Of a stretch of 64,000 nucleotides of DNA, positions 1 to 28,348 are shown one piece after another. A model generated the notes under the pieces. That model made no database searches. It was not told the origin of the DNA and was given only the letters and a program-made list of their open reading frames with translations. The translations under genes and the position numbers were made by a program. Each line of letters starts with the position of its first letter. Position 1 is the first letter of the stretch. The stretch is taken from the IMG/VR virus record IMGVR_UViG_3300005253_000144, positions 1 to 64,000 of that record, one strand, 5' to 3'. This DNA comes from a virus.

Positions 1-1624
1 TCTTTAATTGGTCGCCTAGCTGGTTGAGTCCTACGTTGGTGAAGATGGCATAATTGAGGGTATCGCCCCTAGTTAGTGAATTTACATATAGACCATATTG
101 GTTAGTTAAGATTGGATTCGTACCGAGAGCATCAACGACTTCGAAATGCTTAAGATTAGATACAAGACCCGATGCCTGGTTTCCAAGATAAGCCTGTGAA
201 CGAAATCCAACAGAATTATCTACATTGATATTCGCTCTATTATCTGAAATAGCAAATATTGATTTATTTCCTATTACTAGCCCTGTGTGAGAACCTGCGA
301 CTCCCATGAAAGCAGTATTTTCTAATGAGACAACTGTTGCGTTAGGCTGGTCCCAAGCAGTATTTACCTTAATAAATGTCCTGACTCCCCGAATTTCTCT
401 ACCCCCTGTGGGAGCGAGTGAGGTAATAGTGGTCGTAAATTGCGTTCCTGCACTTGAATTGCTTGTATAATTCCCGCTAAACGTTGTTTGGAAATTATTT
501 ATTTGTCTAGAACCCGTATCAGGTGTTGTTACTGTCTGTAATATTCCACCATCGCCTAATATTGCCAACAGTGAACCTCCCCCACTTTCCTGCACCTCTA
601 CTATATTTTCTAATTGTGTAGCATTTGCCCGAATAGCCAATTGCAATTCATCAACACTACCAGCTATAATTAATGGCCCAGTCATGGTATATCCCGCCGC
701 TTCTACCCATTCCTCCGATGCAATTTCAGCATATGAGCCGCTAATAGTTGTCACAAATCCAGGACCAGAGAAATTTAGCCTATCTGCTGAACCAAGCGGC
801 ACGCCATCATCCAATATGATTACTGTGCCAGACACAGACACATCGGTGGAAAGTGGAGCAAGTCTAAGGTCGTAGATTTCGCTCCAATTTATCCATTGCG
901 TTCCTGATGTTAGATAAACCGCGGCAATAGGAATGCCTTGCTCCGAATCAGGCATAGCAATGAAATTGGTAAATGTTCCGCTGGGTTCATATGCATTGAA
1001 TTCGGGACCAGCAGTATATTGTAAAATCCCATCATCTGGGTCTATATAAACCGTGACGAATTTGCTGTTGTGCGCACCCGTGGGCTGGAAACTTTCAAAT
1101 CCGGCTGACCCACTACCAGGCCACCAATTATATTTCCCGTTTGCAAAATAATAGCCCGCTTCAACATAAATGGACTTAGTTCCGGTATCACTAGGGCGTG
1201 GAAGTAGCGGCATGAATTGTCGCTTGTAAATCCAGGCAATATCACCTCCGGTATTTGGTGCGCCCGCAAAGGAATGGTCAAGTCCATGGCTGGGCAAATA
1301 ACCGCCGCCGCCCCAATCAGCATAAGCACCAACATCGCGAGCAATCACCTTCCATCTAATGGGGTTATTTTCATCCCGCGCTACCAAAACGGGCAAGTCA
1401 AAATGCCTACCGACAGTATCATTAAATGCTTGAATAGGCTCGGACGTAGCCCCCCGAATTCGCACCCATACATAATCTGGACGGTTGGATACAGTAACTA
1501 CGGGACGCCCATCATCAAGATAAGCGCCTAGTAGTCCCGGATGGATAACTGGTTTATCAACCTTGCCTTTTAGGGCCTCTCCAAACGCGCCCTCAAAGGC
1601 CTTGCGCCCTTTATTTGCGACCAT
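1..1624 (-). CDS. Tail fiber / minor tail protein, partial (runs off the left edge; absent from the ORF track)
   Basis: Manual translation from ATG at 1624 (MVANKGRKAFEGAFGEALKGKVDKP...) stays open to position 2. Directly follows the 1044 aa tail protein; G/S/T/N-rich C-terminal part. Confidence 0.75.
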   Translation of the reverse strand, partial: MVANKGRKAFEGAFGEALKGKVDKPVIHPGLLGAYLDDGRPVVTVSNRPDYVWVRIRGATSEPIQAFNDTVGRHFDLPVLVARDENNPIRWKVIARDVGAYADWGGGGYLPSHGLDHSFAGAPNTGGDIAWIYKRQFMPLLPRPSDTGTKSIYVEAGYYFANGKYNWWPGSGSAGFESFQPTGAHNSKFVTVYIDPDDGILQYTAGPEFNAYEPSGTFTNFIAMPDSEQGIPIAAVYLTSGTQWINWSEIYDLRLAPLSTDVSVSGTVIILDDGVPLGSADRLNFSGPGFVTTISGSYAEIASEEWVEAAGYTMTGPLIIAGSVDELQLAIRANATQLENIVEVQESGGGSLLAILGDGGILQTVTTPDTGSRQINNFQTTFSGNYTSNSSAGTQFTTTITSLAPTGGREIRGVRTFIKVNTAWDQPNATVVSLENTAFMGVAGSHTGLVIGNKSIFAISDNRANINVDNSVGFRSQAYLGNQASGLVSNLKHFEVVDALGTNPILTNQYGLYVNSLTRGDTLNYAIFTNVGLNQLGDQLK

Positions 1625-1626
1625 GA

Positions 1627-4600
1627 CTAACTATCACCCCCAAAGGTCGCAATGAAGCCTAGCGGCTGTCCTAGGTCGCCCTGGGTCGTACTAGCAACGG
1701 TTAGGATATCTCCATTTCTATCTGCCCAGGAGCGACCACCATCATCGCTCCCAATTATGGTTGCAGGACCTGCAATCGAAGCCGTTATTGATTTAAACGC
1801 ATAGAATTTTGATGGGTCACCAGCATTTAATTGAAATCCATGCCGCTCAAATGAATCCCAAAATCTTAATAATTCCCAGCCGCCACCAAAACTAGCAGAG
1901 CGAGCGAACACGGTCTCAGGATTGGTCGTAGCCTGTTGAACAAACATACCATAAATCATTCCATCAGCGGGATGGACACGCAATGACCTCTGTCCATTGT
2001 GGTCTTTTCCTGCTGTCGTTCCGACCCATCCAAATGCACCAAATTGCATGGTTACATCTATACGATTCTCTAAACCATCAACAGAATAGATGAGCCGTGC
2101 AAGGTTACAACTCGCAAACCGCGTTCTGTCTAAGTATGAGGCCAAAACTGTAAACTGCCCTGAAATCACCAAATCACGAACACCGCCGCAGGTGTTGCCG
2201 GTCAATTCATCTAGCGTCCGAAACCATATATTCTTGCCGCCATTAATACTATAATATATTTGCGCCTCATCGTTTCCACTACCTGCCAAACTTGCGTAAA
2301 GTATTGTGCCCAAATCATCAAATGCTAAAAATCCAGGTGAAAGCGGATTTGAACCGGGACCAGCCGCCCCCGTCATTGTTCCAACATCATTTTCATCCCA
2401 TGTATCACCGCCATCAAATGTAACCGCTACTTGGTAATGAGGCCCGCCAGGTTTATTTCCATTACCAAAGAATACGACATGCGCGGGGTCTATGGGATTT
2501 ATTTGCAAATCAACATAATGAATATTGCCAGAATTAGTTATTATATCCTTCAATTCAGCATCACTGATTGACTGGACGAATCCGGCACCAGAAGACTTAT
2601 ATAGCCCATCACTAGCTGTCATAATCCACATAGACCCATCCGGCCCAATGCGAAAGGCCACGATGTCTGTGGCGGCAGAGATAGAGACCTCTTCCCAGTT
2701 CGGGCCAGAGAGTTCCCAGAAATTTTGTGTCCGGAAAACCCTGCCGCTAACCGTGTTATCAAAATAAATCACGTATACATATTCTTCGACAAGCGGCGGC
2801 GGTTCTGGTCCGGGAACATCCGGGAAGGGCGGAATCGGGGGTATGGGCGGAAAGTCTGGAAATTCAAATTCAGGTAAATCCGGGGTATCATAGGGCGGGT
2901 CTACGGGGATATTTACCTTTCTGCCGGTTATTGTTTTCAGCCCTTCGGTCTCTTCGCTGGCAGCAATGTTCATGAGCAATAGATTCTGTACCGGATTATA
3001 TTCATAGAATATTTCTTGCGGCACAAACTTCTTTCCATTCCAAATCAGCCCTCGGAAATTGTCCGCGGCCGCCAATGTGATTTCTACGCGCTCTTGCGGC
3101 GCAATGTCAATATGTCGATAATCCCCGGCAATGGGAATATCGATTCTAGGAAAGCGTGAATTTATTTTGTTATATGTCAGCGCAACAAGGTCATTTAGCT
3201 GCCCTTGACCAGCAAGAACTAGACCCGACTGCCTTTGGACGGACCCAAAATAGTCGGCTGGGTCACCTGGTGCGGATGAGATTATTGGAGTGTTGCTTCC
3301 GGTCTCTGGACCTGAATACGCAATTCCGCCCAACTCAACATATGCGACTATTGGCGTGGATTGCTCTTTTATATTTATTTCACCACGCCAATCCTGGTCG
3401 GTCATATTCATGGCTGTATTAAACGATGTGCGGGAACCCGTGGGGGTGAGCGACAAATCTATTTCAGCCCAGAGTTTACCGCCTCTATCTGCTATTAATG
3501 AGGCGAAGAGTGTATTTTGAAGGAAACCATTAGCTCCCGCATATAGTGAGCCACGTGCAAAATCCGCATATTGTACGGGTAAAGTATCCCCGGTTTGGGA
3601 AACATCGGCTATTTGCAATATTGTTGATTGCCAGCGTAGATAAGAAATAAGTGCCTTATCTACCGTCAAATATCTGGCCTCATTCCAGCTATTCGGATTT
3701 CTTTTGGATTCTAGTGTAGCCGAATAAGTACTTAAGGAATCCATTCTTTCCGTAATCGATACAGCTCGGAATTCAATTCGATTAGTTGCAAAATTCTTCC
3801 TAATCGAGTCGTCCTGGACATAGCCTACGAATAAGATATTATCACGGTAGCGGCCGCGCCCAATTTCCTTCCCCCTAACACTCCCTTCCCAATCTTCAGT
3901 AAAAAGAACTATCAATGCACCCTCAACAACTTTGTTGGCATCCGCTTCTTCAATAACCCATACATCCACACTATACCCCCCCTTTTCCCGTGAGCCTTCA
4001 AAGGAGCGTAGCCCCCAGCGCACAAAAGTCCGGGCCGGGCCTTCATCTGGTTTGTTGTAGACTAGGACGTGCCGTGTTCCTGTGAACTCTTTTCCAGTTG
4101 CCGCAGTAATTGTTAGCCGTGTTGTAAAATGTCCAACACCTATGTATTGCACCCATCCAGGGTCTGCATCTGTTGAGCCAGTAATATTTGTATTGCCTTC
4201 AAATATCCAAGAGTAAGTAGAGATTGTGGAATCTGGAACAAAGCTACCTGTACTAGAATAATAAACCCCAAATGCGCCTGTCTCCATGAAACCGGCCACA
4301 TTGCCGCCCATATGCACGACTGGGTCGAAATTACGCCCTTCGTCCAAATAAACCAAGTCATAGTCTTTATAGAATGTTGGCCTGTTCTTTGCATCTAGTG
4401 TGATACGTGGGAACACGGCCCAAGGCTCTCGGAATATTGTTACCGTGATGAACCATCCATTTTCCCAATCGTAATCATTTTCGGCAAGCGTGAGAGTGGT
4501 GCCGCTTCCAGTTATTGCCCGCAAGCGACCAATATTCTTCTGACCTTGCGTACCGCCTATATAGGCAGTCATGCCTTTCTCAACATCATCAATGTCACCG

Positions 4601-4761
4601 CTCAAGATAGTGACTATTATCTCGCGTGCGCCCTTCGCAATGCTGGGCTGATTAATTTGCATTTCAACAAGGGATTGCGGCTCAAAAATACCCATATGTA
4701 TGACCGAGCGATGGGGGCGTTGCCGCAGTTGTGTGATTTCAGATGGAGTTAGGGAAGCCAT
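1627..4761 (-). CDS. Large tail tip/hub protein: PKD-like domain, Pro-rich linker, C-terminal Asp-box (BNR) beta-propeller
   Basis: Second gene after the tape measure; PKD-like 'YSWIFEG...GHFTTRLTIT'; linker PPIPPIPPFPDVPGPEPPP; Asp-box-like TFDGGDTW, YSINGGKNIW, SDDGGRSW. Confidence 0.7.
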   Translation of the reverse strand: MASLTPSEITQLRQRPHRSVIHMGIFEPQSLVEMQINQPSIAKGAREIIVTILSGDIDDVEKGMTAYIGGTQGQKNIGRLRAITGSGTTLTLAENDYDWENGWFITVTIFREPWAVFPRITLDAKNRPTFYKDYDLVYLDEGRNFDPVVHMGGNVAGFMETGAFGVYYSSTGSFVPDSTISTYSWIFEGNTNITGSTDADPGWVQYIGVGHFTTRLTITAATGKEFTGTRHVLVYNKPDEGPARTFVRWGLRSFEGSREKGGYSVDVWVIEEADANKVVEGALIVLFTEDWEGSVRGKEIGRGRYRDNILFVGYVQDDSIRKNFATNRIEFRAVSITERMDSLSTYSATLESKRNPNSWNEARYLTVDKALISYLRWQSTILQIADVSQTGDTLPVQYADFARGSLYAGANGFLQNTLFASLIADRGGKLWAEIDLSLTPTGSRTSFNTAMNMTDQDWRGEINIKEQSTPIVAYVELGGIAYSGPETGSNTPIISSAPGDPADYFGSVQRQSGLVLAGQGQLNDLVALTYNKINSRFPRIDIPIAGDYRHIDIAPQERVEITLAAADNFRGLIWNGKKFVPQEIFYEYNPVQNLLLMNIAASEETEGLKTITGRKVNIPVDPPYDTPDLPEFEFPDFPPIPPIPPFPDVPGPEPPPLVEEYVYVIYFDNTVSGRVFRTQNFWELSGPNWEEVSISAATDIVAFRIGPDGSMWIMTASDGLYKSSGAGFVQSISDAELKDIITNSGNIHYVDLQINPIDPAHVVFFGNGNKPGGPHYQVAVTFDGGDTWDENDVGTMTGAAGPGSNPLSPGFLAFDDLGTILYASLAGSGNDEAQIYYSINGGKNIWFRTLDELTGNTCGGVRDLVISGQFTVLASYLDRTRFASCNLARLIYSVDGLENRIDVTMQFGAFGWVGTTAGKDHNGQRSLRVHPADGMIYGMFVQQATTNPETVFARSASFGGGWELLRFWDSFERHGFQLNAGDPSKFYAFKSITASIAGPATIIGSDDGGRSWADRNGDILTVASTTQGDLGQPLGFIATFGGDS

Positions 4762-4771: not shown

Positions 4772-5128
4772 TTATTCTATCCGGATATTTGAAATTATGA
4801 TTATCATTCGACTTGGATATCCAGCAAAGAACGGCCCTATTTCAGGCTCTGTAATAAACACGCCTGAATATTCGGTAAATCCATAAACAGAACCAGTGGT
4901 AGTTGGGAATGTAGGAATCTCAACTACTGTCGTGCCCGTGGATTGTATATCGTCAAATACGGCTTGCGCATTTGCCCATTCGCTAAAATTGGTAAACCGC
5001 CACTCCAACTGGAATGAACGCATGGCAGGATAGATTGGGCGGCCATCGCCTTGAATATCAACAACTGGGCGCCCCATCCAGCGTCCGCGTGTTGGGCAAG
5101 CATCATGACCATTAATTTTCCAGGACAT
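4772..5128 (-). CDS. Distal tail (Dit-like) protein
   Basis: 118 aa gene immediately after the tape measure; positional inference. Confidence 0.5.
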   Translation of the reverse strand: MSWKINGHDACPTRGRWMGRPVVDIQGDGRPIYPAMRSFQLEWRFTNFSEWANAQAVFDDIQSTGTTVVEIPTFPTTTGSVYGFTEYSGVFITEPEIGPFFAGYPSRMIIIISNIRIE

Positions 5129-5132: not shown

Positions 5133-7769
5133 TTATCTACCTCTATGCGTGTTGCGGGTAATATTTGCTATGACTGCTGCAGATTCTTCCAGCCCTTCAT
5201 CAATGATACTTGCGATTAATCCTGAATCCAAACTAATATCCAGCATGACGGTTTGTTCGCCACCCCTTCCTCCAAACCCTGCAATTGGGTCGCCTGTTCC
5301 AGCACTGAGCGGCGAAACATTGACAAGTTCTGGGCGCTCACCAACCAATAGCATTGTAGGGGCTGTAAAGATTTCATTAATTGCTCCGCGTTGGCGCTCG
5401 CTCTCGCCCCCTATCCGACGACCTCCGGGTGTAGCCGAGGCAGTAGGAGATGTGCCAAACCCAGACAACATTTGATAATACCTGTTCATAAATGCTTCAA
5501 CCCAACCTCCCGGACCATAAGCATCCATCAGCATATCAAAGAGAGCCCTCAGCCCTTCGTTTGTCAATTTAAGTTCGTTCGTAATCCCTGCGAATATGGT
5601 TTCGATTCGTCGCTGATGGTTGAGCCGCAAGTCATCTAATTGACGTTGATATGCCCGTCTTGCATCCTCGATTTTGCGTTTATCGGATTCTTGCTGGTCT
5701 TCTATTTCCTGCAAAAAAGCCTGAAGGCGTAGTTCTCTGCGAATTTCTACTTGTTCTTGAACCTGCTTTAGCTCAAGGGCTAGGTCTTCTTTAATTCTTT
5801 TTTGCCTTAATCTAAAATCGCCTTCACGCTTACGCTTTTCAAGATTGAATCGCCGCTGGAGCATGAGAACTTGGCGTGCATCACGCTCACGAACAGCATC
5901 CTCAAGGTCTAACAAGAATCTGTTTTCTAGGTCACGAATATCCCGTAGAAAATCTTCACGAAGCCGGATTTCCTCAATTTGGGATTCCCGAATTGCGCCC
6001 ATGCGGGTAACGGCTCCCTGCTGCTCTAACCTTTGCAAATCGCGTTGCAAATCAAGTTCCATGTCCGCTCTACGGCGACCTGAAGCACGCGCCAAGTCCT
6101 CCATTGTTCGATTCAAATCCGTTCGTGCATCTTCCATTCCCTGCGCCAAATCTTGATTCAATTTGTCCATTGCTTTGGAAATATCTTCAAAGGCGGCGTT
6201 AACTTGCATTGCCATATTTTCTGCTTCTGGGCCTGGTTCACCAAATGCATCGCCCATATCTTCGGTAAAACCTATCATTTTCAGACCCACATCTTCAAAT
6301 GTTTTAAATGCCGCTAGATAAGTAGTATCAAAGACATTTGCCAATTTTTCTCCATCGAATACTAGGTTAACCATTTGAGTACGCAATTCTCCCAACACAG
6401 CAGCCGTCGCAATTGCAACAGCACCAAATGCCGATAATGCGTTAACCGCAAGAATACCAATAACCGTAACTAATTGGCTAAATGCTTCAAAGGCACTTCC
6501 CACAACTTCTTTTATGCTAATCCAGATTGGTGTTACTATGCGCCCAATATTTTCTGTCCCGCTCACCATCTTTTCTGATGCTTCTTCCGCACGCCCCGCC
6601 AATGTGTTTTGGAGGTCTGCCGCATCCTGCACGATTCCATTCGTTTGGTCAAGGATTATTTGATAGCGCACCAATTGCTTTTCGGCTTCGCTCATGTCAT
6701 TTTTAGACTTGAGAATTCCAAGTCCAAAAGCGGTCTGCTCAAATAAAGCCTCAGAATATTGAAGCCCTAAATTGCGTAAAGCGTCTGTATAGCCCGTTTG
6801 GATAAAGTCTGCCAATACTTCAGATGAGCCAGTAATATCTCCATTCGTTTTATTTAGAGCAATCCCCGCCGTAATGACATCTCTAATTTGTTGCTTATTA
6901 AGTGATAATTGTGTGCCCAACCGCGAAACGGCTTCAGCAATTTCATCATATGTTTGTGTTAAATCCCCGCCGAACTTCTCAACAATTTCTTCAGCGAATT
7001 CTTTCCATTCACCAATTGAACCCGCGGCTTCGCCTTGTATACGTTGATAGCGCCGCACTTGGATGGATAGACTTGACAACGCTTTATCATATTCAAGAGT
7101 AAGTTTAATACCCTCTCTAACTACTTGATTAATCATTTGCAAGCCTTTTATTATTAATGCCACAACCGCAAATTTTTTTAAGTAGCCGACAACTGCGCTC
7201 TTCGCATCATTAAAGATTTGGGCCATAGGAGACGCTTCGGCCTTTGTCTTTTGTAGACCTTCAATGGCCGCATCCGCAAAACTATTTACAGCCTGTTCCC
7301 CTTCTTCCAATGTTTCCGAGGTTTCTGCCGTCGTCTCCAGCATTTTACGTAGTGATTCCTCTGTTGCTTTATCTATTTTTAAACCGGCAGCTTCTGCTGC
7401 ATCGGCAATCCGATTCCATGCGTTTTCAATAACAGTCGCCACTTGCTTGTCATAAACATCAGCGAAATCTAATAATTCATCTAGTACAAACTCAGTATTT
7501 TCATGTAGTTTTTGAAAATCTGCGAGTGCGCCAAACTGACCACGCTCAACGCCCTCATATTTTTTTAGCAATGCAGAAAATTCTTTTCCAATTTCTTGTG
7601 CGCGTTTGCTTATCCCCTCAAGAGCCTCGTCAAATTTTTCTGTTTCCTCAACGGCGTCTTCAATCCCCTTTTCAATCTCTACTATTGCATCCGAAGCATC
7701 AATAGTAAGTTGAACAGCAACCTCTTCAATCGGGTCATTGCCGCCGCCAGCGCCACCAGGGAGTGCCAT
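5133..7769 (-). CDS. Tail tape measure protein
   Basis: 878 aa, helical/coiled-coil with hydrophobic stretches; N-terminal 'VAVQLTIDA'; C-terminal 'LLVGERPELV'; downstream of major tail protein and chaperones. Confidence 0.85.
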   Translation of the reverse strand: MALPGGAGGGNDPIEEVAVQLTIDASDAIVEIEKGIEDAVEETEKFDEALEGISKRAQEIGKEFSALLKKYEGVERGQFGALADFQKLHENTEFVLDELLDFADVYDKQVATVIENAWNRIADAAEAAGLKIDKATEESLRKMLETTAETSETLEEGEQAVNSFADAAIEGLQKTKAEASPMAQIFNDAKSAVVGYLKKFAVVALIIKGLQMINQVVREGIKLTLEYDKALSSLSIQVRRYQRIQGEAAGSIGEWKEFAEEIVEKFGGDLTQTYDEIAEAVSRLGTQLSLNKQQIRDVITAGIALNKTNGDITGSSEVLADFIQTGYTDALRNLGLQYSEALFEQTAFGLGILKSKNDMSEAEKQLVRYQIILDQTNGIVQDAADLQNTLAGRAEEASEKMVSGTENIGRIVTPIWISIKEVVGSAFEAFSQLVTVIGILAVNALSAFGAVAIATAAVLGELRTQMVNLVFDGEKLANVFDTTYLAAFKTFEDVGLKMIGFTEDMGDAFGEPGPEAENMAMQVNAAFEDISKAMDKLNQDLAQGMEDARTDLNRTMEDLARASGRRRADMELDLQRDLQRLEQQGAVTRMGAIRESQIEEIRLREDFLRDIRDLENRFLLDLEDAVRERDARQVLMLQRRFNLEKRKREGDFRLRQKRIKEDLALELKQVQEQVEIRRELRLQAFLQEIEDQQESDKRKIEDARRAYQRQLDDLRLNHQRRIETIFAGITNELKLTNEGLRALFDMLMDAYGPGGWVEAFMNRYYQMLSGFGTSPTASATPGGRRIGGESERQRGAINEIFTAPTMLLVGERPELVNVSPLSAGTGDPIAGFGGRGGEQTVMLDISLDSGLIASIIDEGLEESAAVIANITRNTHRGR

Positions 7770-9461: not shown

Positions 9462-9833
9462 TTAAGGAATATCAAAATACTTTCTTTCCACCGAGCCAGA
9501 ACCACAACAGGCCGCTAATTTGCGGTTCTTTTCCCGGAGAAATTCGATATCTTGTGAACGTACTGAAACCGCTGCGCCCGCTTTATCAAATACGTATTCT
9601 TCCCCACTAGGAGCACCACGTATTATCATTTTTCCGGGCAACAGACTGGTAACAGTTACGCGTTCTTCACTCCCAACAGAAGAAGCCATTGTGGATTTGG
9701 CCTTTTTTGTAGGCCTGCCACGCTTCACCTTTTTAATTGCAGGCTTAACCTCCGGGGAATCACTGGGAGTAATATCCGATTCCTCATCGACACCTAGTTT
9801 GTTGTCGTCATGTTCGTCTTTATTATCATCCAT
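9462..9833 (-). CDS. Hypothetical virion-region protein with C-terminal CCG motif
   Basis: ORF in the structural operon; acidic then basic N-terminus; 'LAACCGSG'. Confidence 0.6.
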   Translation of the reverse strand: MDDNKDEHDDNKLGVDEESDITPSDSPEVKPAIKKVKRGRPTKKAKSTMASSVGSEERVTVTSLLPGKMIIRGAPSGEEYVFDKAGAAVSVRSQDIEFLREKNRKLAACCGSGSVERKYFDIP

Positions 9834-19483: not shown

Positions 19484-19486
19484 TGA

Positions 19487-20299
19487 TTACCTTCCTTCCA
19501 GCCAAGGCTTTCCTGCCTTATAATCGCGTTCTAGTTGTCGGCGATTTCGCGGCGTATCCATCATCTGCCAATAGCCATTATGGATACATGCGCCTAGTTT
19601 ATTTTGTTCGGCCAAATTGGGCAATATATCAAATTCAAAACGCACACTCTCATTCCTAATGGTATCTAATAGTTTTGAATCAACAATGTAGAAACCGCCA
19701 TTAATATAGGCATTATCAATCTGCCGTTTTTCTGCAAACCTAGTTACATAGCCCGATTGTAATTCCAGAACACCAAAGCGTGCTGGAGGATGTACAGCCG
19801 TTAATGTAACCCACGTGTCTTTTTGAGATTGACAAAGCATATTGTGGAATACTTCTAATTTCGGCAAATTTATGTTTCCTAATCCGTCTCCATAAGTTAG
19901 AAAGAACCTTTCGCCCTCATCAAAATGATTTGCCAATCGCAATAGCCGCCCACCGGTTGGCGTTTCCAAACCAGTGTTGACTATTGTCAAATTTTCTACC
20001 CCGGCAGCCCTTTGATTATATCTTTCTCCCCATTCTCGAATAATTTCGTGTTTAAATCCAGCCGCAATGATAAACTCGCGATATCCCTGCTTGGTATAAA
20101 TATTAATGATTAGTTCAAGTATTGGGATTCCTCCGATGGTGACCATCGGCTTAGGAATCAACCCCTTTGTCTCTTCTTGCAGGCGCGTTCCCTTACCCCC
20201 GGCAAATATAACTACCTTACGAACAGAATCAATTTGGTTTACCATTTGTTTATTTCCTTGGCTATTTTTCATAGCCCATAATTCGCATTGCTTCAACAA
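19487..20299 (-). CDS. rfbF: Glucose-1-phosphate cytidylyltransferase
   Basis: 'AGGKGTRLQEET...PKPMV', 'TGGRL', 'LTYGDG', 'INGGF', 'WQMMDT'; true start may be slightly downstream. Confidence 0.9.
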   Translation of the reverse strand: MLKQCELWAMKNSQGNKQMVNQIDSVRKVVIFAGGKGTRLQEETKGLIPKPMVTIGGIPILELIINIYTKQGYREFIIAAGFKHEIIREWGERYNQRAAGVENLTIVNTGLETPTGGRLLRLANHFDEGERFFLTYGDGLGNINLPKLEVFHNMLCQSQKDTWVTLTAVHPPARFGVLELQSGYVTRFAEKRQIDNAYINGGFYIVDSKLLDTIRNESVRFEFDILPNLAEQNKLGACIHNGYWQMMDTPRNRRQLERDYKAGKPWLEGR

Positions 20300-21011
20300 T
20301 CCCGTTATCTTTCCAGAACGTCTTTATATGCTTGGCTTTAAAATGGTTTTTCCAGTCACCAATTTCCCCCTTGCGAAACGTTGGAGATTCATTAGGCTTA
20401 ATTCTTTGTGCCAATGTTGTAGATGATTCGTTACGAAACACATCAGGCGCGAACTTTATCATTTCTTGGCAAGTCGCCAGCGGAACTGTGCGAAAACTCT
20501 CGTATTTTAGCGGCAGGATATTCGCATCTTTGTAATCATTCGCACGACTAATCCAGGGCGTTATTTCTGCCAACCGTTCCCCCAGACCACATATTATATC
20601 CATCATCGGGTCAGGACGTGTGTGAAGAAGCTGGCCGGAAACCCTAAAATTTTGTGCTGAAGAAGCAAAGAATTTCTTAACATGGAACATATGGGCCACT
20701 ACGCAATCGCGCGGGTCTCGTATAAGTAATATTGTTTTGATTCCCATTTTCTCCAATAGATAATAAATGGTGTCGTTCCAGGGTACATGCCCAACACATC
20801 GCCTTTTATTCGTAAGCGGTTGAAAGCTTTCCCAAAGGTCTTCGCGTATAGCATCGATATCCCTTTTAATGCCCCCAACGTCTGTTTCATACCTACGGAT
20901 ATGCCAATCCGCCCTTACGATTTGCAAGAGCATATTAGTGCCTGAATTAGGGAATGAGTTGACCAATAAGTGTTGCATTATTATTCCACGGTTTGCATAG
21001 TCGAATGGCAA
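20262..21011 (-). CDS. PAPS-dependent sulfotransferase
   Basis: 5'-PSB-like 'SFPNSGTN', 3'-PB 'IRDPRDCVV', 'KYES', C-terminal 'FRKGEIGDWKNHF'. Confidence 0.85.
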   Translation of the reverse strand: MPFDYANRGIIMQHLLVNSFPNSGTNMLLQIVRADWHIRRYETDVGGIKRDIDAIREDLWESFQPLTNKRRCVGHVPWNDTIYYLLEKMGIKTILLIRDPRDCVVAHMFHVKKFFASSAQNFRVSGQLLHTRPDPMMDIICGLGERLAEITPWISRANDYKDANILPLKYESFRTVPLATCQEMIKFAPDVFRNESSTTLAQRIKPNESPTFRKGEIGDWKNHFKAKHIKTFWKDNGIVEAMRIMGYEK

Positions 21012-21652
21012 ATATACCGATATTCCACAATCGGGGGGTGCCGTGGGTCAGGAATAGTCACCTCTGGATTATGTACTTTATATATTTCAGCATTCATTTT
21101 AAGTGTGTCAATCCCAATAGGAAACCATCCTGCTCGCTTTAAATACCATTCTATTTGCACGTTATTCATCATTGAATAGTGGTTTCTGCCCGCATAGGTC
21201 CAATATTCAGGAGCGGGAGCAATTAGATATAACCATTTAATTGAAACCCGCTGCCATTCCATTAAAGTAATTAGCGGAAAGGGAGAATGTTCTAGGACGT
21301 GTCGGGCAAATAACAAATCAAATGAATTGTCAGGAAATGGCAAAAATGTCATGTCGGCTTCATGCACATTTAACCCCACCGCCTTGGCAATTGCGTAATC
21401 CTCCCCGCGTGTAACTCCAGTCCAATCATGTAGTCCAACTTGCGCAAATAATGGTTTACAAAAACCAGCCGCACAGCCAATGTCCAAAACATTTTTAGTT
21501 GATTCTTTAGCGGCGGTCTCGTAATATCTATTAATGGCGTCCTCTGCCCAGGCGCGGTGACCAGCGTCTTCTGGCTGGGGATAAATATCCTGTGCCAATT
21601 CTGATAAATACGCATCGAAATGTTTATATTTATTATTCAAATCGTTTGGCAT
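20981..21652 (-). CDS. Class I SAM-dependent methyltransferase
   Basis: 'VLDIGCAAG', 'DMTFLPFPDNSFDL', 'HVLEH'. Confidence 0.9.
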   Translation of the reverse strand: MPNDLNNKYKHFDAYLSELAQDIYPQPEDAGHRAWAEDAINRYYETAAKESTKNVLDIGCAAGFCKPLFAQVGLHDWTGVTRGEDYAIAKAVGLNVHEADMTFLPFPDNSFDLLFARHVLEHSPFPLITLMEWQRVSIKWLYLIAPAPEYWTYAGRNHYSMMNNVQIEWYLKRAGWFPIGIDTLKMNAEIYKVHNPEVTIPDPRHPPIVEYRYICHSTMQTVE

Positions 21653-22436
21653 AGTCTGGCAATTCCTTTAGTGGTCCAGCGAATTCTAGTGGGTGTTTTG
21701 TGTGCTCTCCCTGAACCGCATGATAAAATTCCAACTTAGTTTTGGTTGTTTCTTCATCTGGCCATGTGTAATGTAATAAACATACAGGCGGTTCAATGTA
21801 AAAGCGATTTTCACGTTCTGGAATATTCTCTATAGTCATACCGCCGTCTTCATCACCAATCTCTCTTGCCCGAACATCTACATCTGAGTGCCACGCCCAC
21901 ATACTTTGGCCGGGTTCGTTTAATAAGGGGAAGTATTTATCTAGCCCCCAAAGATACAGGCGATAAAGAAAGACTGCCTCATAATTATTATAATGAGCAG
22001 TTTCAATTAGCAGACGCCCCTGCTGCTTTAGTGCATAATTGGGAAGACTGTCACAATCGTCAAATATTATCCAATCAGCACCCTCCTCTTCAATTGCCCA
22101 ATCAATTAAGAAGTTCACATGCCTACCCTGTGGATTAAAATGATGACCATTCTTTTCTACGATGGTCGGGAATTCTCTTACTTCAACAAAGTCATACAAT
22201 GATGCAAACTTAACGGTATCGTCCGTGCTCCCTCCATCTGCAACTAATATTTTATCAGCCCAAACATAAGAACTGCAAAAAGGCTCAATATATTTTTCCT
22301 CGTTCATTGTTCTGACGATAACGACAATTTTTAGTTTATTTCCGTTTGATATAACTTGTTTGGTGTTTGGCATTGGACACACCTTTATTAAATAATTCAG
22401 ACGTATAAAAATAACACACAACCAACTGCTTGCCAT
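21633..22436 (-). CDS. Glycosyltransferase family 2
   Basis: 'NEEKYI', 'ADGGSTDDT', 'WIIFDDCD'; likely start at MPNTKQ (~22373). Confidence 0.85.
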   Translation of the reverse strand: MASSWLCVIFIRLNYLIKVCPMPNTKQVISNGNKLKIVVIVRTMNEEKYIEPFCSSYVWADKILVADGGSTDDTVKFASLYDFVEVREFPTIVEKNGHHFNPQGRHVNFLIDWAIEEEGADWIIFDDCDSLPNYALKQQGRLLIETAHYNNYEAVFLYRLYLWGLDKYFPLLNEPGQSMWAWHSDVDVRAREIGDEDGGMTIENIPERENRFYIEPPVCLLHYTWPDEETTKTKLEFYHAVQGEHTKHPLEFAGPLKELPDYAKRFE

Positions 22437-22821
22437 TATCAGAGATTCCCATTTCCATAGCTTGTGCGCCTGTAATTAAGACCGCCGGAGAGCCGCAAGT
22501 ACACATTGCGAACCACCTGCCGCGCCCACCTTCTCCCTGTTCTTCATAAAGTGGGTCAGCATAGATAAAATGCTCCCCATGATATTCAGCACATTTCACG
22601 GCTTCGGTCTGTGCAGGGCGGTTACCATCGCTGGGAACTGTAAAATAGATATACTCTTGCTTCTCTACCTTATGGCCGCTGTCCAAAACGGCGGATTTAG
22701 GGTCGCCGCGGCGTTTGATTAGATTAAGTCTAGTAGTCTTTAAGTCAAATCCATTATTGTCGCCTATGGTTTTCATAGCAAATCCATCTTTTCTAACAAT
22801 GTTTGAATACGTGCATCCCAA
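22336..22821 (-). CDS. Hypothetical Cys/His-containing protein
   Basis: ORF in the cluster; 'MCTCGS'; likely start ~22776. Confidence 0.55.
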   Translation of the reverse strand: MGCTYSNIVRKDGFAMKTIGDNNGFDLKTTRLNLIKRRGDPKSAVLDSGHKVEKQEYIYFTVPSDGNRPAQTEAVKCAEYHGEHFIYADPLYEEQGEGGRGRWFAMCTCGSPAVLITGAQAMEMGISDNGKQLVVCYFYTSELFNKGVSNAKHQTSYIKRK

Positions 22822-23681
22822 GTATGCGGCTCTACAGCTCGGCGTGCTGCAAAGCCCAGGCTTTTGGCCCTCTCTGTATCTTGCATTATCTCTTGAAACT
22901 TTTCTACTGCATCGGACACATTGTCAAACCCAATAAAATGTTCGCCATCAATGAAAAGTTCCATGAGGTCGGGAGTCCGATTCAGCAAAGGAACAATACC
23001 GAAGGCCATGAGTTCATATACTCGCGCTGTCGTATCCTTTAGGCTGGAATGATTGAATCCTACTTTTGTGTTGTGATAAATTTCTCTGGCATCATCATAG
23101 GCCAATCCTATATCAAAATAAGTGGCATAATTTTGGCTTTTTAGCAGATTAAAGAACTCGATTCTTTGCGTATATTGTAGTCCGATAAGACTCGCATCTA
23201 TCTCCCTTTCTGCCCATGGCTTGGGCGTTTGGGCATGATAAATCGGGTCATAGGCATAGGGTAGCCATACGTCATTTGGTTTCATATAGGGCTTTTGCAT
23301 ACAAAAGAATTTTGTCGCGCGCCCGCGTAGTTCATCATAATTCAATACATGTGGGTCGGTCCCAACAACTGCATATGGAGCATTAGTTGGGGCAGCAGGC
23401 GAAGTTAATCCGGCGTTGACCTCCAACCATAAATCGGGGGTCCAGGGGCATAGATTTTCAAGCATTTGGTAATTGATTAATGGCGGACTTGATAGCGGCA
23501 ATGGATAATCTGGCGTGTAAACATATTCGGGGGGGAGCACCATGCCCCCGCGCCACGGAATATTGCGACCAGTGAAAGGACCAGCAGTCCATATTTCTAC
23601 GTCTTTCCGGCGTAGCAACGCTTCAAGGAAATATCTTCCCATTGCTACTGGATAAAAAATAGTTGTGAAGGCAATTCTCAT
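22773..23681 (-). CDS. Glycosyltransferase, CgeB/Glyco_trans_1_2-like
   Basis: 'WLPYAYDP', 'KVGFN', 'ARVYELMAFG', 'HTWDARI'. Confidence 0.8.
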   Translation of the reverse strand: MRIAFTTIFYPVAMGRYFLEALLRRKDVEIWTAGPFTGRNIPWRGGMVLPPEYVYTPDYPLPLSSPPLINYQMLENLCPWTPDLWLEVNAGLTSPAAPTNAPYAVVGTDPHVLNYDELRGRATKFFCMQKPYMKPNDVWLPYAYDPIYHAQTPKPWAEREIDASLIGLQYTQRIEFFNLLKSQNYATYFDIGLAYDDAREIYHNTKVGFNHSSLKDTTARVYELMAFGIVPLLNRTPDLMELFIDGEHFIGFDNVSDAVEKFQEIMQDTERAKSLGFAARRAVEPHTWDARIQTLLEKMDLL

Positions 23682-24043
23682 GGCGCCAGATATAGGACTA
23701 TCCAGATTGACAATAAATGTAATGCTTGGTCATCCATCGCTTTTACAAAAAGATAATCATCTTTCTTGAATAGGCGATTCCATAAACTACCTAATTGAAA
23801 GCCATCAATTAATAGGTGTGTAATTGCTATCATTATGATTTGGCCGAGGGAAAATCCGAAGACTACAAATGGAAGTGCCGTAACCAATACATGTACGACG
23901 AGAACTTTCCGGCTTTCCCTCTTGTTCTTTGTCATCCAGGAATTTTGTAAGAGCCAATCTCCCAGCAAGTGTGCGACAAGGGCATTGATAAACATCGATT
24001 CTTCTCCTTTTATGGTTTTTCTGGAACATTTGGTAGCCCCCAC
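23678..24043 (-). CDS. DUF3307 family membrane protein
   Basis: 'AHLLGDWLLQ', 'THLLID', 'DQALHL'; likely start at MFINAL (~23995). Confidence 0.8.
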   Translation of the reverse strand: MGATKCSRKTIKGEESMFINALVAHLLGDWLLQNSWMTKNKRESRKVLVVHVLVTALPFVVFGFSLGQIIMIAITHLLIDGFQLGSLWNRLFKKDDYLFVKAMDDQALHLLSIWIVLYLAP

Positions 24044-24798
24044 TTTTCAGCGAAGACCGCACGCATTTTTATGGTTTGTTCTCTTCGTGCCGTTGAATAT
24101 CCTATCGTTCCCGCGCCTAAATGTTTTATTGGAAGTGTTGGAAAATCTTGGACTATATTTAATGGGACAATCCCAGCATTCTTTTCTGACAACAACTCTA
24201 CCTCGCGCGCGAGGTCGATGTCTTCATAGTCAAATGGGTAGTAACGCGTATCAAACCCCTTAATTGCTCGCCATGTTTTTTGTGTTAGCGCAAGCCAATA
24301 TCCTTCGCCATATGTAACGACAATGTTTGCAAAAGAATTCCAGCCTGAATTCCAATCCACCTTTCTATGGCACGCCAATCCACCGGCCTTGCAGTGCTCA
24401 TAAATTCTCAGCCCCACTTCTCCCCCCAAGAAATCGCCAAGCATCACTACATCATTTGAATACAAAATCAATACCTCACCCTCTGCTATTTTTGCGGCAT
24501 GATTAAATCCGCTCCCAAACCCATTATTCTCCATAACCCTATATGCCCTTAAATTCGGATATTCTTGGGCATTATGAACAAACATCTCTGAGATTTCAGA
24601 GCCAATACTTCCATTATCAATAAGAATGATTTCTGTGTCTTTGCGCGGAACTAGATATGAAATTGCCTCAGCCATGCGCTGGCGCGCTAGAGCAATTTTG
24701 TTGTAATTTAATATTAGAACTGAGTATTTATACCCGTGGGTTGAGGGGTTCATGAACAGCGCGCTCCTGGCTGTGATATTCCTCCAAAGCCTCTTCAA
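24010..24798 (-). CDS. Glycosyltransferase family 2
   Basis: 'SVLILNYN', 'IDNGS', 'NNGFGSGFN', 'GFDTRY..DYEDIDL'. Confidence 0.85.
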   Translation of the reverse strand: MKRLWRNITARSALFMNPSTHGYKYSVLILNYNKIALARQRMAEAISYLVPRKDTEIILIDNGSIGSEISEMFVHNAQEYPNLRAYRVMENNGFGSGFNHAAKIAEGEVLILYSNDVVMLGDFLGGEVGLRIYEHCKAGGLACHRKVDWNSGWNSFANIVVTYGEGYWLALTQKTWRAIKGFDTRYYPFDYEDIDLAREVELLSEKNAGIVPLNIVQDFPTLPIKHLGAGTIGYSTARREQTIKMRAVFAEKWGLPNVPEKP

Positions 24799-25567
24799 CT
24801 TTAAGAATTGGCAAGCCTAAACTTTTTGCCAATTCTATTGATAGACCTGCGTTTCGAGGTCGTGGAGCCGCGCCTTTAATTTTGTTCGTTGCTAATATAA
24901 GATTGTGGTCGTAATCAAATTTTTTCGCTATCAGCCTTGCAAATTCATATCGCGAAAGGATTGATTCGCCAGCAATATGTAACAGCCCTATTCTACTCTT
25001 TTTCGTAGCCAATTGCAATAGCGCATCTGCCAATGATGGAATATAGGTGGGATTTCCATAAAGGTTTTTAGGCATTTCTATTGGCTTATTGAGGGCAAGC
25101 ATTTCTCGGACAGCCCGCACAAAATCTATGCGTGAGCCATGGCCAAAGAGGTCTAGTGTTCGTACAACACAGGTTGGATTGCGAATATTGGCAGCTTGCT
25201 CTCCGCCAAACTTTGACCACCCATATTCGTTCAGTGGGTCCGGCTTATCATTTTCCGAATAATTCCCCTTCTCCCCATTAAATACATAGCCTGTCGATAT
25301 GTGAATGAAAAAGCCCAAAAATTCTTGGCGCAGAATACCTACACCACGATGATTAGAACTAAATAGGGCATCCTTCTCTGCCTCCTTCTCCGCATCATCA
25401 ACGGCTGTATATGCCGCGCAGTTTATTAATACATCAATGCTTTCCCGCTCCAACGCATCCCTAACCGCTTCACGGTCATCGATACGCATTTCAAGCGGGA
25501 CACACCCGCGTTTAATTAACTCACTGCCTAGCCGCCCATTTGGGCCAGTAACCCCTATCTTCATCAA
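24728..25567 (-). CDS. NDP-4-keto-sugar reductase (RmlD-like)
   Basis: 'VTGPNGRLG', 'INCAAYTAVDDAE', 'HISTGYVFNG', 'YGWSK', 'PRP'. Confidence 0.9.
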   Translation of the reverse strand: MMKIGVTGPNGRLGSELIKRGCVPLEMRIDDREAVRDALERESIDVLINCAAYTAVDDAEKEAEKDALFSSNHRGVGILRQEFLGFFIHISTGYVFNGEKGNYSENDKPDPLNEYGWSKFGGEQAANIRNPTCVVRTLDLFGHGSRIDFVRAVREMLALNKPIEMPKNLYGNPTYIPSLADALLQLATKKSRIGLLHIAGESILSRYEFARLIAKKFDYDHNLILATNKIKGAAPRPRNAGLSIELAKSLGLPILKVEEALEEYHSQERAVHEPLNPRV

Positions 25568-26353
25568 TCAGTTCTTTGAAGAGGCTTCGCGAATCCGCTG
25601 AATGCGCGGGGATGCGGGCGGCAAATCTTCACTACCACTTACTACATTTTCAACTGGTAGCCAATCTCCGGGGACACTCCCAACCTGATATGTGAATTCA
25701 CCCAACTTGGTCTTACCCGATAATACATGCTCATCGGTATCTGGATTGTTTATCATAATGCTAACGTCAGAGAATTCACCACCCGGAGGGGCAGAGATAT
25801 TTTCTTCAATTAAGAAATCCATTAAATCGGCGTCAAGACCGGCTTCATCTTCGGCTTCAGGTTCGGCGTCAGGTTCAGCTTCAATTTCGACCTCGGCTTC
25901 GGCCCCCGGTTCGGCTTCAGGTTCGGCGTCAGGTTCAGCTTCAATTTCGACCTCGGCTTCGGCCTCCGGTTCGGCTTCAGGTTCGGCGTCAGGTTCAGTT
26001 TCAATTTCGACCTCGGCTTCGGCCCCCGGTTCGGCTTCAGGTTCGGCGTCAGGTTCAGCTTCAATTTCGGCCTCTGGTTCGGCCTCCGGTTCGGCTTCAG
26101 GTTCGGCGTCAGGTTCAGTTTCAATTTCGACCTCGGCTTCGGCCCCCGGTTCGGCTTCAGGTTCGGCCTCTGGCTCAACCTCGGCCTCTGGCTCAACCTC
26201 GGCTTCTGGCTCAACCTCGGCTTCGGCCTCCGGTTCGGCTTCAGGTTCGGCGTCTGGCTCAACAGCACCCTCTGGTGTGGTTCCATCCATGCTAACGGGA
26301 AGTTCTTCCGTATCTTCGCTTTCTTCGGTTACATCTTTATCTTCATCAGCCAT
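25568..26353 (-). CDS. Highly acidic Glu/Pro/Ala repeat protein
   Basis: RBS GGAGA upstream; ([20 protein letters not shown])n. Confidence 0.75.
25850..26255. repeat. Tandem repeat with a 60 bp period (~5 copies) plus shorter 18 bp units
   Basis: Lines 25861-26160 are near-identical 60-mers (gttcggcgtcaggttcag[c/t]ttcaatttcg...). Confidence 0.95.
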
Positions 26354-26378: not shown

Positions 26379-26675
26379 TTAACGTCCGCCGCCGTTTGTC
26401 CAGCGGCGCACATCATTTTCATTTGCCAATACGATTATACCGGGCCTTTTCTCACCACAACAACCGCCTTTGGTAGCCAATGCGCAACCCATATCCTCTG
26501 GGGGTATCCAGGCCATGCTTATATTAGCTCTTATATTGAAAATATGGGTCAGCTTTTCCCCCGTGCCATTACACTGAATAGAAACGCGCTGTTGGCGTCT
26601 ATACTTTAATGCAACATTGCCATCCTCGTTTACAATGGCGTCATCTGGAATAATACTTGCTGATAACAAAGCCAC
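26379..26675 (-). CDS. Hypothetical protein with CCG motif
   Basis: ORF downstream of the capsid gene; 'GGCCGEK'. Confidence 0.6.
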   Translation of the reverse strand: MALLSASIIPDDAIVNEDGNVALKYRRQQRVSIQCNGTGEKLTHIFNIRANISMAWIPPEDMGCALATKGGCCGEKRPGIIVLANENDVRRWTNGGGR

Positions 26676-26701: not shown

Positions 26702-27037
26702 TTATGGTCCCAGTTCCGCGGGGGCATCATACAGCATTATCCAACAAAGCCTATCATCAGCGGTATCAAAGTTTGCCCACAATACACTCAAGTTTGCCAA
26801 ACCTTCCAGCGTTAGCGAATCCGTATCTGTCGAAGTTATGGGGTAGCCAGTATCAGAACCAACCGCGACCCCAGTAGCAAAACCGACCCATATATTCCCT
26901 GCATTATCAGGATGTGGCCTTAACACGGCGCGCTCTCCAGCAAGGTTGGGGAGCTGGTAAGGCGTACCAGTTATTAAACCAACTAATTGGCCGGTTTGTA
27001 CAGATTTGCGGTACGGGTCAACCCTTTGGTCTCCCAT
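26702..27037 (-). CDS. Putative capsid decoration / small beta-sandwich virion protein
   Basis: Immediately after MCP; RBS GGAGA; 'HPDNAGNIWVG...GYPI'. Confidence 0.55.
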   Translation of the reverse strand: MGDQRVDPYRKSVQTGQLVGLITGTPYQLPNLAGERAVLRPHPDNAGNIWVGFATGVAVGSDTGYPITSTDTDSLTLEGLANLSVLWANFDTADDRLCWIMLYDAPAELGP

Positions 27038-27103: not shown

Positions 27104-27133
27104 ATTATTTTGTGCTAACGACCTAGGCAGAAA

Positions 27134-28348
27134 TTAGCCGATTGTCGGACATGTGGTTTGGATACGCCCGGTGAACTGAGTCGTATACGCACCATGAGCG
27201 CAACAGTGTTTGATAATCAAGGCAGTCTTTGCCCAGACCTCAAAGCTAATCGCGGTACAACCCGGCACCAAATCTTTAAGTGCCAGCGGGATTTGCGTCA
27301 GCTTGTACACAAGGGGCACTCCATTATGATTCATGCGGAGCGCATAAACAATGCTTTGGAATGCGCCAGTGCCCATATCGGCGGAGGGGAAGTTGTTGTC
27401 AGCGACCACTGCTAAACGGCCAACACCCGTATTGACAAATCCGGCAAAGTTGAAACCGGGAACAATACGGTCGCCAGTAGAGAAGTTGACGATTTGGCTA
27501 CCTTGATAACCGAGCTGGAAATAGGCCGACAGCACTTCTTGCATTGCTTGCGGAGACCCAAATATATGGGTCGGTTTTGCGCAAGTTTCCGCCAGGAAGC
27601 GGTCAAAAGAGATGGCCGAAAATGTTCCAGAGGCTGAGTTGTCGTTGGTATTTGCGCCGCACGCCACATCACCTAGGCGATTGACAATACCATCAAATTC
27701 CAAAGAATTGTTGTCAACATCACCGTTCACCAACAAATTGTCCCAGCCGTTAAGAACTAGGGTCATCGATAAACGTACTTCCTTTTCCTTAACATCGGCA
27801 ACATGTTCTTGTTCAAATGTGCCAACATCGGAGCCGCCAGGAACGCCTTCACCGGCAGGAATCGCACCAACAAGTTGGTTTATTCCGTGCCAATTCGCGC
27901 CCGCGACAGCACGCGAATGCATGATGTCTGAGATGGACAGAGTTTTCTTTGCGCCGATATTCTTCAATGGGACAGTAGTGTTCTCGCCATCATGCGTGTA
28001 CTCTTCCGGACATTCACCATCGGCAAATGAGATATAGGCCGAACCAGACGTAAAGGCCAGCGAGTTTAGCTCACGCCAAGTATAGGCTTGGAGCGCGGTA
28101 GTGTCTTCGGGAAGTGCCTGCCAGACAGTAATTTCCTCGCACATTGCAATGACTTCTGTCGGGTCAAGGGGCGTCGGGTATTGAGCAGCAAAATCTGCTG
28201 GTGATACATAGGGTTGGGGCAAGATTACCGGGTCAGTGGTGCGCTGCACCGCAATTTCGGACTCGAATTCCTGCCCATGGCTTCCACCCAAATCCAGGAC
28301 TCTTTCGCCAGCAATATCAGGTGTAGATAGCGGATTATTGATAGTCAT
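27134..28348 (-). CDS. Major capsid protein
   Basis: 404 aa after protease/scaffold; strong RBS GAGGA; 'LLVNGD...LEFDGI' typical of HK97-fold MCPs; terminator downstream. Confidence 0.85.
   Translation of the reverse strand: MTINNPLSTPDIAGERVLDLGGSHGQEFESEIAVQRTTDPVILPQPYVSPADFAAQYPTPLDPTEVIAMCEEITVWQALPEDTTALQAYTWRELNSLAFTSGSAYISFADGECPEEYTHDGENTTVPLKNIGAKKTLSISDIMHSRAVAGANWHGINQLVGAIPAGEGVPGGSDVGTFEQEHVADVKEKEVRLSMTLVLNGWDNLLVNGDVDNNSLEFDGIVNRLGDVACGANTNDNSASGTFSAISFDRFLAETCAKPTHIFGSPQAMQEVLSAYFQLGYQGSQIVNFSTGDRIVPGFNFAGFVNTGVGRLAVVADNNFPSADMGTGAFQSIVYALRMNHNGVPLVYKLTQIPLALKDLVPGCTAISFEVWAKTALIIKHCCAHGAYTTQFTGRIQTTCPTIG

Follow-up and report, generated by a model that had tools for sequence, protein, structure and literature searches.

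Ser/Thr-Gly-Ser/Thr tripeptides are over-represented in the outer particle proteins of an uncultured siphophage clade that carries a glycosyltransferase cluster

Gene order and the glycosyltransferase cluster

The window analysed here, a stretch of 64,000 nucleotides, is the first 64 kb of one 102,174-bp virus contig (IMG/VR record IMGVR_UViG_3300005253_000144) that represents an uncultured phage from sediment, labelled G000. Most window genes are carried on the minus strand, and among those for head, neck and tail lies a 12.6-kb cluster for sugar-nucleotide synthesis and glycosyl transfer, placed between MCP, the major capsid protein, and the connector (Table 1). An earlier note on this DNA had counted the tripeptide [ST]G[ST], a glycine flanked on both sides by Ser or Thr, in the virion proteins and had proposed it as the acceptor motif of the neighbouring glycosyltransferases (GTs). 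Based on the evidence collected in this study, the excess of [ST]G[ST] in the outer particle proteins is confirmed as real, as arising at the protein level and as clade-wide; it is tentatively understood as a structural feature. Relatives among cultured phages were found neither by megablast nor by tblastn.

Table 1. Features of the window, listed from TerL towards the contig start, with the [ST]G[ST] sites of the proteins (expected counts where available)
Feature	Coordinates	Length	Strand	[ST]G[ST] sites	Remarks
TerL	38285-39907				first in transcription order
Portal fused to head-morphogenesis domain	35732-38215				next after TerL
469-aa open reading frame (ORF)	30436-31845	469 aa			upstream of MCP; relatives 29-41% identical
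649-aa ORF	28470-30419	649 aa			directly upstream of MCP; relatives 29-41% identical
MCP	27134-28348	404 aa	-	2 (TSGSA, ASGTF)	phrog_212, weak; three small ORFs follow
111-aa ORF, putative decoration protein	26702-27037	111 aa	-	1 (ITGTP)	adjoins MCP
261-aa protein	25568-26353	261 aa			between sugar/GT cluster and small head ORFs
Sugar-nucleotide synthesis and GT cluster	12962-25567	12.6 kb	-		by Pfam/PHROG
Connector / head-tail adaptor-like protein	11937-12644	235 aa	-	2 (ITGTF, STGTI)
Head-closure-like neck protein	11540-11917	125 aa	-	1
Neck1	11034-11645				neck region
gp17-like tail-completion protein	9863-11032				neck region
123-aa ORF, putative virion protein	9462-9833	123 aa	-	1 (GSGSV)
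Tail tube	8812-9444	210 aa	-	2 (T5-G6-T7, ITGTP; S50-G51-T52, MSGTA)
Tape measure protein (TMP)	5133-7769	878 aa	-	2 (0.67 expected)	phrog_1535
Small Dit-like protein	4772-5128	118 aa	-	2 (0.28 expected)
Tail hub/tip protein	1627-4761	1044 aa	-	7 (2.33 expected)
Tail fibre, N-terminal part	2-1624	541 aa	-	7 (1.48 expected)

The GTs of the cluster comprise three of the GT2 type, two of the GT4 type and one GT1-like gene, and they are accompanied by genes for RmlA-, RmlB- and RmlD-like proteins, an FdtA-like cupin and a DegT aminotransferase as well as by a methyltransferase, a sulfotransferase and a DUF3307 gene. A GT/sugar cluster located between MCP and connector is a hallmark of the clade, delimited by an MCP identity of at least 57%: it was seen in the window and in the loci L002, L004, L009, L026, L028-L039 and L041, and L040 and L042 end too soon. 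The conserved core of the cluster consists of the RmlD-like gene together with GT2c, the GT1-like gene, GT2b, GT4b, GT4a and GT2a, and the sugar-nucleotide genes vary between members. Detection of the sulfotransferase was limited to G000 and L029. At about 11.2-19.3 kb, L032 and L033 carry ~8 kb of extra DNA between MCP and the homologue of ORF 26379-26675, the first conserved cluster gene.

Family searches of the cluster named no lipid-carrier priming transferase, flippase or polymerase. The Pfam domains of its GTs are of the GT2, GT4 and GT1-like types, with none of the GT9/BAHT type (Glyco_transf_9), and no gene of the GT41 or oligosaccharyltransferase type was seen. In NCBIfam, none of the cluster GTs reaches a curated cut-off, so that homologues of known protein O-glycosyltransferases (O-GTs) could not be named among them at that level; the nearest known protein O-GT is a faint match to SdgA.

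The tripeptide excess in outer particle proteins

All pentapeptides listed in the earlier note are present in the proteins named, its counts for the individual proteins (Table 1) were reproduced, and the seven hub sites lie, as described, in the N-terminal half of the protein, two of them overlapping in ITGSGTT. The external proteins indeed hold 25 sites, in a combined length of 2,911 aa and not the ~3,500 aa given before. The internal set, which comprises portal, TerL, the 649-aa and 469-aa ORFs and TMP, holds 3 sites in 3,363 aa, in agreement with the earlier figure of ~3,400 aa. When corrected for the S/T and G content of each protein, the external count compares with an expectation of 6.47 (3.9-fold) and the internal count with one of 3.02 (1.0-fold), and the enrichment differs between the two sets with p=0.009 (conditional binomial). 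Because the fibre ORF runs off the contig start, its seven sites constitute a lower bound.

The 12 proteins of the tail/neck module hold 24 sites, compared with 7.2 expected from global shuffles or 8.2 from local 30-aa shuffles (p<5e-4), corresponding to an enrichment of 3.3-fold with an analytic p of 7.7e-7. The order of residues matters: G[ST][ST] occurs at 1.1-fold and [ST][ST]G at 0.96-fold, Gly is the top middle residue among all [ST]x[ST] of the module, and when the residue classes on either side of Gly are tabulated in a 9x9 matrix, [ST]-G-[ST] stands out as the sole strong outlier cell in each of three genomes. A pure effect of composition is ruled out by shuffles and permuted motifs. 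Elsewhere in the phage the motif is at 1.25-fold (rest of the genome), 1.6-fold (GT cluster) and 1.9-fold (head/packaging genes), none of them significant. The 24 tail/neck sites are encoded by 22 different nonamers that span all codon types of Ser, Thr and Gly; the signal, and selection for it, therefore reside at the protein level, and a motif of the DNA is ruled out by the same diversity. The motif had been picked by eye, post hoc, from the sequences. Bonferroni correction over 729 class-tripeptides leaves p~6e-4 for G000 alone.

The controls were 60 tail and neck proteins (24,285 aa) taken from lambda, SPP1, T7, T4 (long fibre), HK97 and T5. In these six phages, all of them without virion GTs, 64 sites were counted against 51.9 expected (1.23-fold), the highest single protein reaching 3.9-fold on 4-5 sites. 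The equal enrichment in phages lacking GTs that the earlier note had named as refuting its proposal was thus not observed, and a generic property of all tail proteins is ruled out. In each of the control tail modules, the best-scoring of the 729 class-tripeptides has a p between 1e-3 and 5e-6; the favourite is P-[ND]-G in T7, for instance, and [ND]-[FWY]-hydrophobic in the fibres of T4. Tail modules thus commonly have an idiosyncratic favourite tripeptide, and the 7.7e-7 of G000 lies modestly beyond the control range. [ST]G[ST] ranks first of the 729 independently in G000, G014 and G008, the latter two reaching about 1e-10 (p down to 5e-11).

Searches of IMG/VR with the MCP recovered 23 loci at 46-77% identity to that of the window, and tail modules were taken from twelve further clade members. 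Across the thirteen genomes, the tail-module enrichment ranges from 2.2- to 4.6-fold; eleven clade genomes pooled give 318 sites against 92.9 expected (3.42-fold), although these genomes are homologous and their counts not independent. By family, the enrichment is 4.7-fold in the connector, 6.3-fold in head-closure, 5.3-fold in the tube, 6.5-fold in the Dit-like protein, 3.1-fold in the hub and 4.4-fold in the fibre. The value for TMP is 1.5-fold (13 sites across the clade against 8.4 expected), there is no conserved column, and neither of the two sites in the window TMP is kept in relatives. Almost no sites are found across the clade in the chaperones, Neck1 and the tail-completion protein. 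The excess is thus confined to tube, Dit-like protein, hub, fibre, connector, head-closure and MCP, with portal and TerL also lacking it, and it is biased in residue use (TGT 4.7-fold > TGS 3.7-fold > SGT 3.2-fold > SGS 2.0-fold). The MCP-based searches returned only GT-bearing phages and hence no GT-less relative; a pattern-level search of IMG/VR gave no hub relatives, and neither IMG/VR nor JGI contigs yielded P0147 or P0154, two distant homologues of the tube.

Within the clade, many sites recur at fixed positions. The T-G-T column of the connector is kept in 11 of 12 members, the head-closure site in 10 of 13 with S/T swaps, and the T-G-T column of the Dit-like protein in 9 of 12; three hub columns (11 sequences) and four fibre columns (12 sequences) are conserved in half or more of the members. 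The two MCP sites, S-G-S at 101-103 and S-G-T at 240-242, are each conserved in 17-18 of 20 clade MCPs. Over 14 conserved columns, the Gly is retained by 85% of the sequences, and each flank is a hydroxyl residue in 84%; Ser and Thr exchange freely, and N/D, A and V/I are rare. Non-conserved sites of hub and fibre are 2.2-fold over expectation, in alignments that at 25-35% identity are unreliable.

The fibres additionally contain a tandem repeat of ~33 aa with the pattern hydrophobic-x-D-E-G-x-x-L-G ... L-N-F-x-G ... S-G-[ST], present in 1 to 7 copies per fibre (window fibre, L018:8289-10763, L050 fibre). The profile hidden Markov model (HMM) of the repeat locates the one copy of the window fibre at aa 270-301. 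Complete fibres hold 7-21 sites, the 21 sites of one fibre arising from 7 repeats, and in two complete homologues the count is 16 (811 aa) and 17 (824 aa). Pfam, PHROG and PDB returned zero matches to the repeat, and sequence searches gave no relative of solved structure for fibre or tube.

A few neighbouring features were recorded along the way. Two chaperones are encoded beside tube and TMP and transcribed between them. Pfam and PHROG gave zero matches for the 649-aa and 469-aa ORFs, as did family searches for the 123-aa ORF, and a homologue of the 111-aa ORF was not detected in G001 and G002. The 261-aa protein has an acidic, Glu/Pro-rich N-terminal region and a weak PARP-repeat match, and could be a scaffold-like or linker protein. 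The tail-completion protein combines its gp17-like N-terminal domain with a C-terminal region that weakly matches concanavalin-A-like/LamG folds; its homologues in relatives are far shorter (132-215 aa). Many cysteines are conserved in MCP and tube alike: five of MCP (C70, C113, C256, C364, C400) are invariant in 20 sequences and two of the tube (C62, C79) in 80, and the particle may be stabilised through them by disulfides or metal. IMGVR_UViG_3300037339_000150 carries its MCP twice in tandem (L042:10001-11155 and L042:12629-13807), with 72% and 69% identity to the window MCP. The short contigs L056, L057 and L058, which carry a clade MCP, are binned in metagenome-assembled genomes of Anaerolineae, Woesearchaeota and Bathyarchaeia; the assignments are mutually inconsistent, probably reflecting binning noise, and are uninformative on the host.

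Structural turn, acceptor loop or another cause

We lean, with a confidence just short of even, towards [ST]G[ST] being a structural, hydroxyl-capped glycine turn whose count is amplified by the fibre repeats. The tripeptide would mark a selected turn or loop with a hydroxyl residue on both flanks of the glycine, often with a hydrophobic residue beyond, in which the hydroxyls may cap and stabilise the turn and no sugar would be attached. It could represent the clade's version of a generic polar-Gly-Ser/Thr turn of tail proteins, with position 1 usually taken by Asn/Asp in the controls and by Ser/Thr here. The excess would then have three sources, namely between one and four turns of conserved position in every one of seven unrelated virion folds, the fibre repeat with one or two motif copies per unit, and a modest excess of sites without conservation, found in hub, fibre and accessory tail proteins. 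Speculatively, a Ser/Thr before the Gly might avoid the labile Asn-Gly and Asp-Gly bonds in particles that have to be long-lived.

The site statistics, the conservation pattern and the repeat stand as shown; the structural role is inferred, with a predicted fold among its supports. The AlphaFold2 model of ORF 8812-9444 has a mean predicted local distance difference test (pLDDT) score of 87.5 and matches siphophage tail tube proteins in Foldseek, which at the level of a confident model confirms the tail tube assignment. Both tube sites are modelled in non-strand segments: S50-G51-T52 in a confidently modelled loop before a long beta-hairpin, and T5-G6-T7 in the low-confidence N-terminal arm. 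The MCP model (pLDDT 47) is too poor for placing sites. Among 80 tube homologues, reaching down to 25% identity, conservation is 90% or higher for each of S50, G51 and T52; a distant homologue, P0133, naturally has Q-A-T instead. A hydroxyl directly before a conserved Gly in a loop, as such a turn predicts, is found in the 14 conserved columns and in the tube loops, and the Thr bias and hydrophobic neighbours of the sites fit strand-edge positions. Consistent with fixed structural positions, the whole surplus in connector, head-closure, tube and Dit-like protein resides in one or two conserved columns plus a few of middle frequency, and rare sites of these small proteins are at or below chance (0.44- to 0.85-fold). 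In the fibre repeat, S-G-[ST] belongs to the most conserved positions, and some units contain a second motif as G-T-G-T.

The comparison with the controls likewise argues for a turn. Their tail proteins are enriched for [ND]-G-[ST] (1.9-fold), [ND]-G (1.37-fold) and polar-G-polar (1.47-fold), the top tail motif of T5, a phage devoid of virion GTs, is [ND]-G-[ST] (2.3-fold), and strong favourite tripeptides arise in control modules as well. In the tail/neck proteins of 11 clade genomes, [ND]-G-[ST] is at 0.98-fold and [ND]-G at 0.83-fold, and [ST]-G is raised to 1.41-fold; part of the signal is therefore an N/D-to-S/T swap at position 1. The Asx-turn interchange of N/D and S/T was not found within the clade columns; between lineages the swap is seen, with N/D in the controls and S/T in the clade.

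Several findings weigh against a purely structural origin. The swap alone is insufficient because the combined [NDST]-G-[ST] still stands at 2.40-fold in the clade and 1.51-fold in the controls, and N and D together make up only ~2% at position 1 of the conserved columns. The six residues on either side of the sites are averagely conserved (mean percentile 0.57); the tripeptides are therefore conserved islands, and an account of them as mere parts of the most conserved blocks finds no support. Universal physics should govern a motif that is purely structural, yet the excess is specific to one lineage, where it recurs in seven unrelated folds and in accessory proteins without detectable homology to them. 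The latter are eleven accessory ORFs of the clade tail loci (putative virion proteins, eight inside the tail modules and three just upstream of the connector), which show no relation to the core families by BLAST or the repeat HMM and hold 23 sites against 9.8 (2.4-fold, p=0.003, empirical baseline). Finally, the GT cluster occupies its place between MCP and connector/neck in every clade member with enough DNA.

Several of these findings give substance to the alternative, a broad form of the earlier note's proposal, that a substantial part of the [ST]G[ST] turns serve cytoplasmic O-GTs of the cluster as acceptor or recognition loops; the enzymes would act on folded or folding virion proteins before assembly and coat tube, tip, fibres, neck and capsid with a glycan made by the phage. 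We consider it a possible explanation, with roughly one chance in three. In its favour, the signal depends on residue order, arises at the protein level, distinguishes 11 clade genomes (3.4-fold) from the six GT-less model phages, and is limited to exposed particle proteins, leaving out TMP, chaperones, portal, TerL and enzymes. It tops the 729 class-tripeptides in three genomes, extends to the accessory proteins and the non-conserved columns of hub and fibre, and keeps a hydroxyl on both flanks, Ser and Thr replacing each other freely and N/D or A being almost absent. The cluster is present clade-wide and had no priming transferase, flippase or polymerase named in it, and loop-directed O-glycosylation in the cytoplasm has a precedent in TibC (PMC4358343).

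All relatives recovered bear the cluster, which leaves no contrast with and without GTs inside the clade, and the one outgroup speaks against this explanation. G003 and G004 have an MCP 46% identical and a GT cluster even larger than that of the clade; in G003 it adjoins the connector and includes homologues of GT2a (36% identity), GT4a, GT4b and the GT1-like gene, and still the tail module holds 13 sites against 10.3 expected (1.26-fold), hence no excess, as a turn independent of the GTs would allow. Small proteins show no surplus beyond their one or two conserved columns and therefore no sign of selection for site number, the fibre repeat multiplies counts, and the phage's non-virion proteins do not avoid the motif (1.25- to 1.6-fold). 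The GTs remain below curated cut-offs with the faint SdgA match and without a GT9/BAHT-type enzyme, C-terminal Ser/Thr-rich tails of the mycobacteriophage kind are absent, and the need for hydroxyls on both sides of the Gly is untypical of an acceptor site. The statistical predictions of the earlier note have thus held, and the sequon role it proposed is unproven, being countered by the outgroup and by the pattern of conserved columns. The stronger version, that this large and abundant clade of ~50-110-kb sediment/aquatic siphophages coats the whole particle with an amino-deoxyhexose glycan of its own making, which may be methylated and sulfated and whose attachment is directed by a short hydroxyl-Gly-hydroxyl loop that cytoplasmic GT2/GT4 enzymes would read, is in our judgement unlikely.

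That the excess requires a lineage-specific cause could also point to some other factor, such as phosphorylation or acylation of Ser/Thr, an assembly chaperone, host-glycan binding, or selection against deamidation-prone Asn-Gly and isomerisation-prone Asp-Gly. The depletion of [ND]-G in the clade relative to the controls (0.83- vs 1.37-fold) would suit the last of these, but the head/packaging proteins of this phage show no depletion of [ND]-G (1.34-fold), avoidance of labile bonds fails to explain the hydroxyl after the Gly, and neither a kinase nor an acyltransferase was seen among the annotated neighbours. We regard this group of causes as improbable. An artefact of post hoc motif choice, inflated by shared ancestry, draws on the selection of the motif by eye, on control motifs that reach p down to 5e-6 as best of 729, and on the non-independence of clade counts. 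It is judged very improbable in view of the Bonferroni-corrected p~6e-4 for G000 alone, the single outlier of the a-G-b matrix in three genomes, the recurrence in non-homologous accessory proteins, and the top rank in members that are only 25-35% identical in hub and fibre.

The distinction has practical importance. Were the acceptor signal true, glycosylation sites on the particles of uncultured phages would become predictable from sequence alone, which would enable genome-scale study of virion glycan coats (immune evasion, stability, host-range masking); the clade would offer a compact tag-plus-enzyme set for glyco-engineering, and a motif-directed system of O-glycosylation would be described in phage virions for the first time. 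If the motif is a structural turn only, it provides a warning that idiosyncratic over-represented tripeptides are common in tail modules, and that fibre repeats, shared ancestry and the choice of N/D or S/T can mimic a sequon beside GT genes.

Relation to known turns and glycosylation systems

The favoured glycine turn has its natural counterpart in the Asx-turn and the ST-turn, which are structurally equivalent. These turns, together with the type I'/II' glycine beta-turns, are reportedly treated by Wan and Milner-White (1999) and Hutchinson and Thornton (1994). Common to them and to the proposed turn is the side-chain oxygen of Ser/Thr or Asn/Asp placed before the Gly of a tight turn. The known turns should, however, accept N/D, which the conserved columns here do not, and universal turn physics explains neither the clade-specific 3.4-fold enrichment nor its spread to unrelated proteins.

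With the classical sequons, i.e. N-x-[ST] (including that of the cytoplasmic NGT/HMW1C) and the D-[ST]-[AILVMT] of Bacteroidota, the acceptor proposal shares the idea that a short motif marks the site of modification. Both sequons are ruled out as explanations here since neither is enriched in these tail proteins (0.81-fold and 0.90-fold, respectively). To our knowledge, the [ST]G[ST] tripeptide has no precedent in known phage virion glycosylation or among known cytoplasmic O-GTs.

The closest mechanistic analogue is found in TibC and AAH, which act on TibA and AIDA-I and recognise a structural loop instead of a long linear sequon. Their cytoplasmic O-heptosylation is directed to Ser rather than Thr and takes place in short loops of beta-helix repeats, and the mapped sites of TibA include a Ser in N-S-G-G context (PMC4358343). 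Differences exist in enzyme and residue alike. TibC and AAH are GT9-type heptosyltransferases with an iron-finger, as opposed to the GT2, GT4 and GT1-like enzymes here, and they modify Ser only, whereas the excess described above is Thr-biased, though the fibre repeat carries an S-G-[ST] in each unit.

For phages themselves, Freeman et al. (2023, Cell Host Microbe) are said to have described O-glycosylation of the virions of mycobacteriophages Che8, Corndog and Myrna by phage-encoded GTs, with C-terminal Ser/Thr-rich tails of capsid and tube subunits reportedly serving as acceptors. Alternative acceptors of that kind were not found in this phage: the C-termini of MCP and tube are ordinary and contain no 10-aa segment with at least 6 S/T. 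The mycobacteriophage system involves few GTs and C-terminal acceptor tails, in contrast to the 12.6-kb pathway with six GTs inside the structural operon and the internal candidate tripeptide of this clade. According to PMC12363180, which cites Freeman et al. (2023), phage-encoded virion glycosylation is established for mycobacteriophages. The two systems have in common the GT genes encoded by the phage, the capsid and tail proteins as targets, here proposed ones, and the timing, in that a modification in the cytoplasm would precede assembly of the particle.

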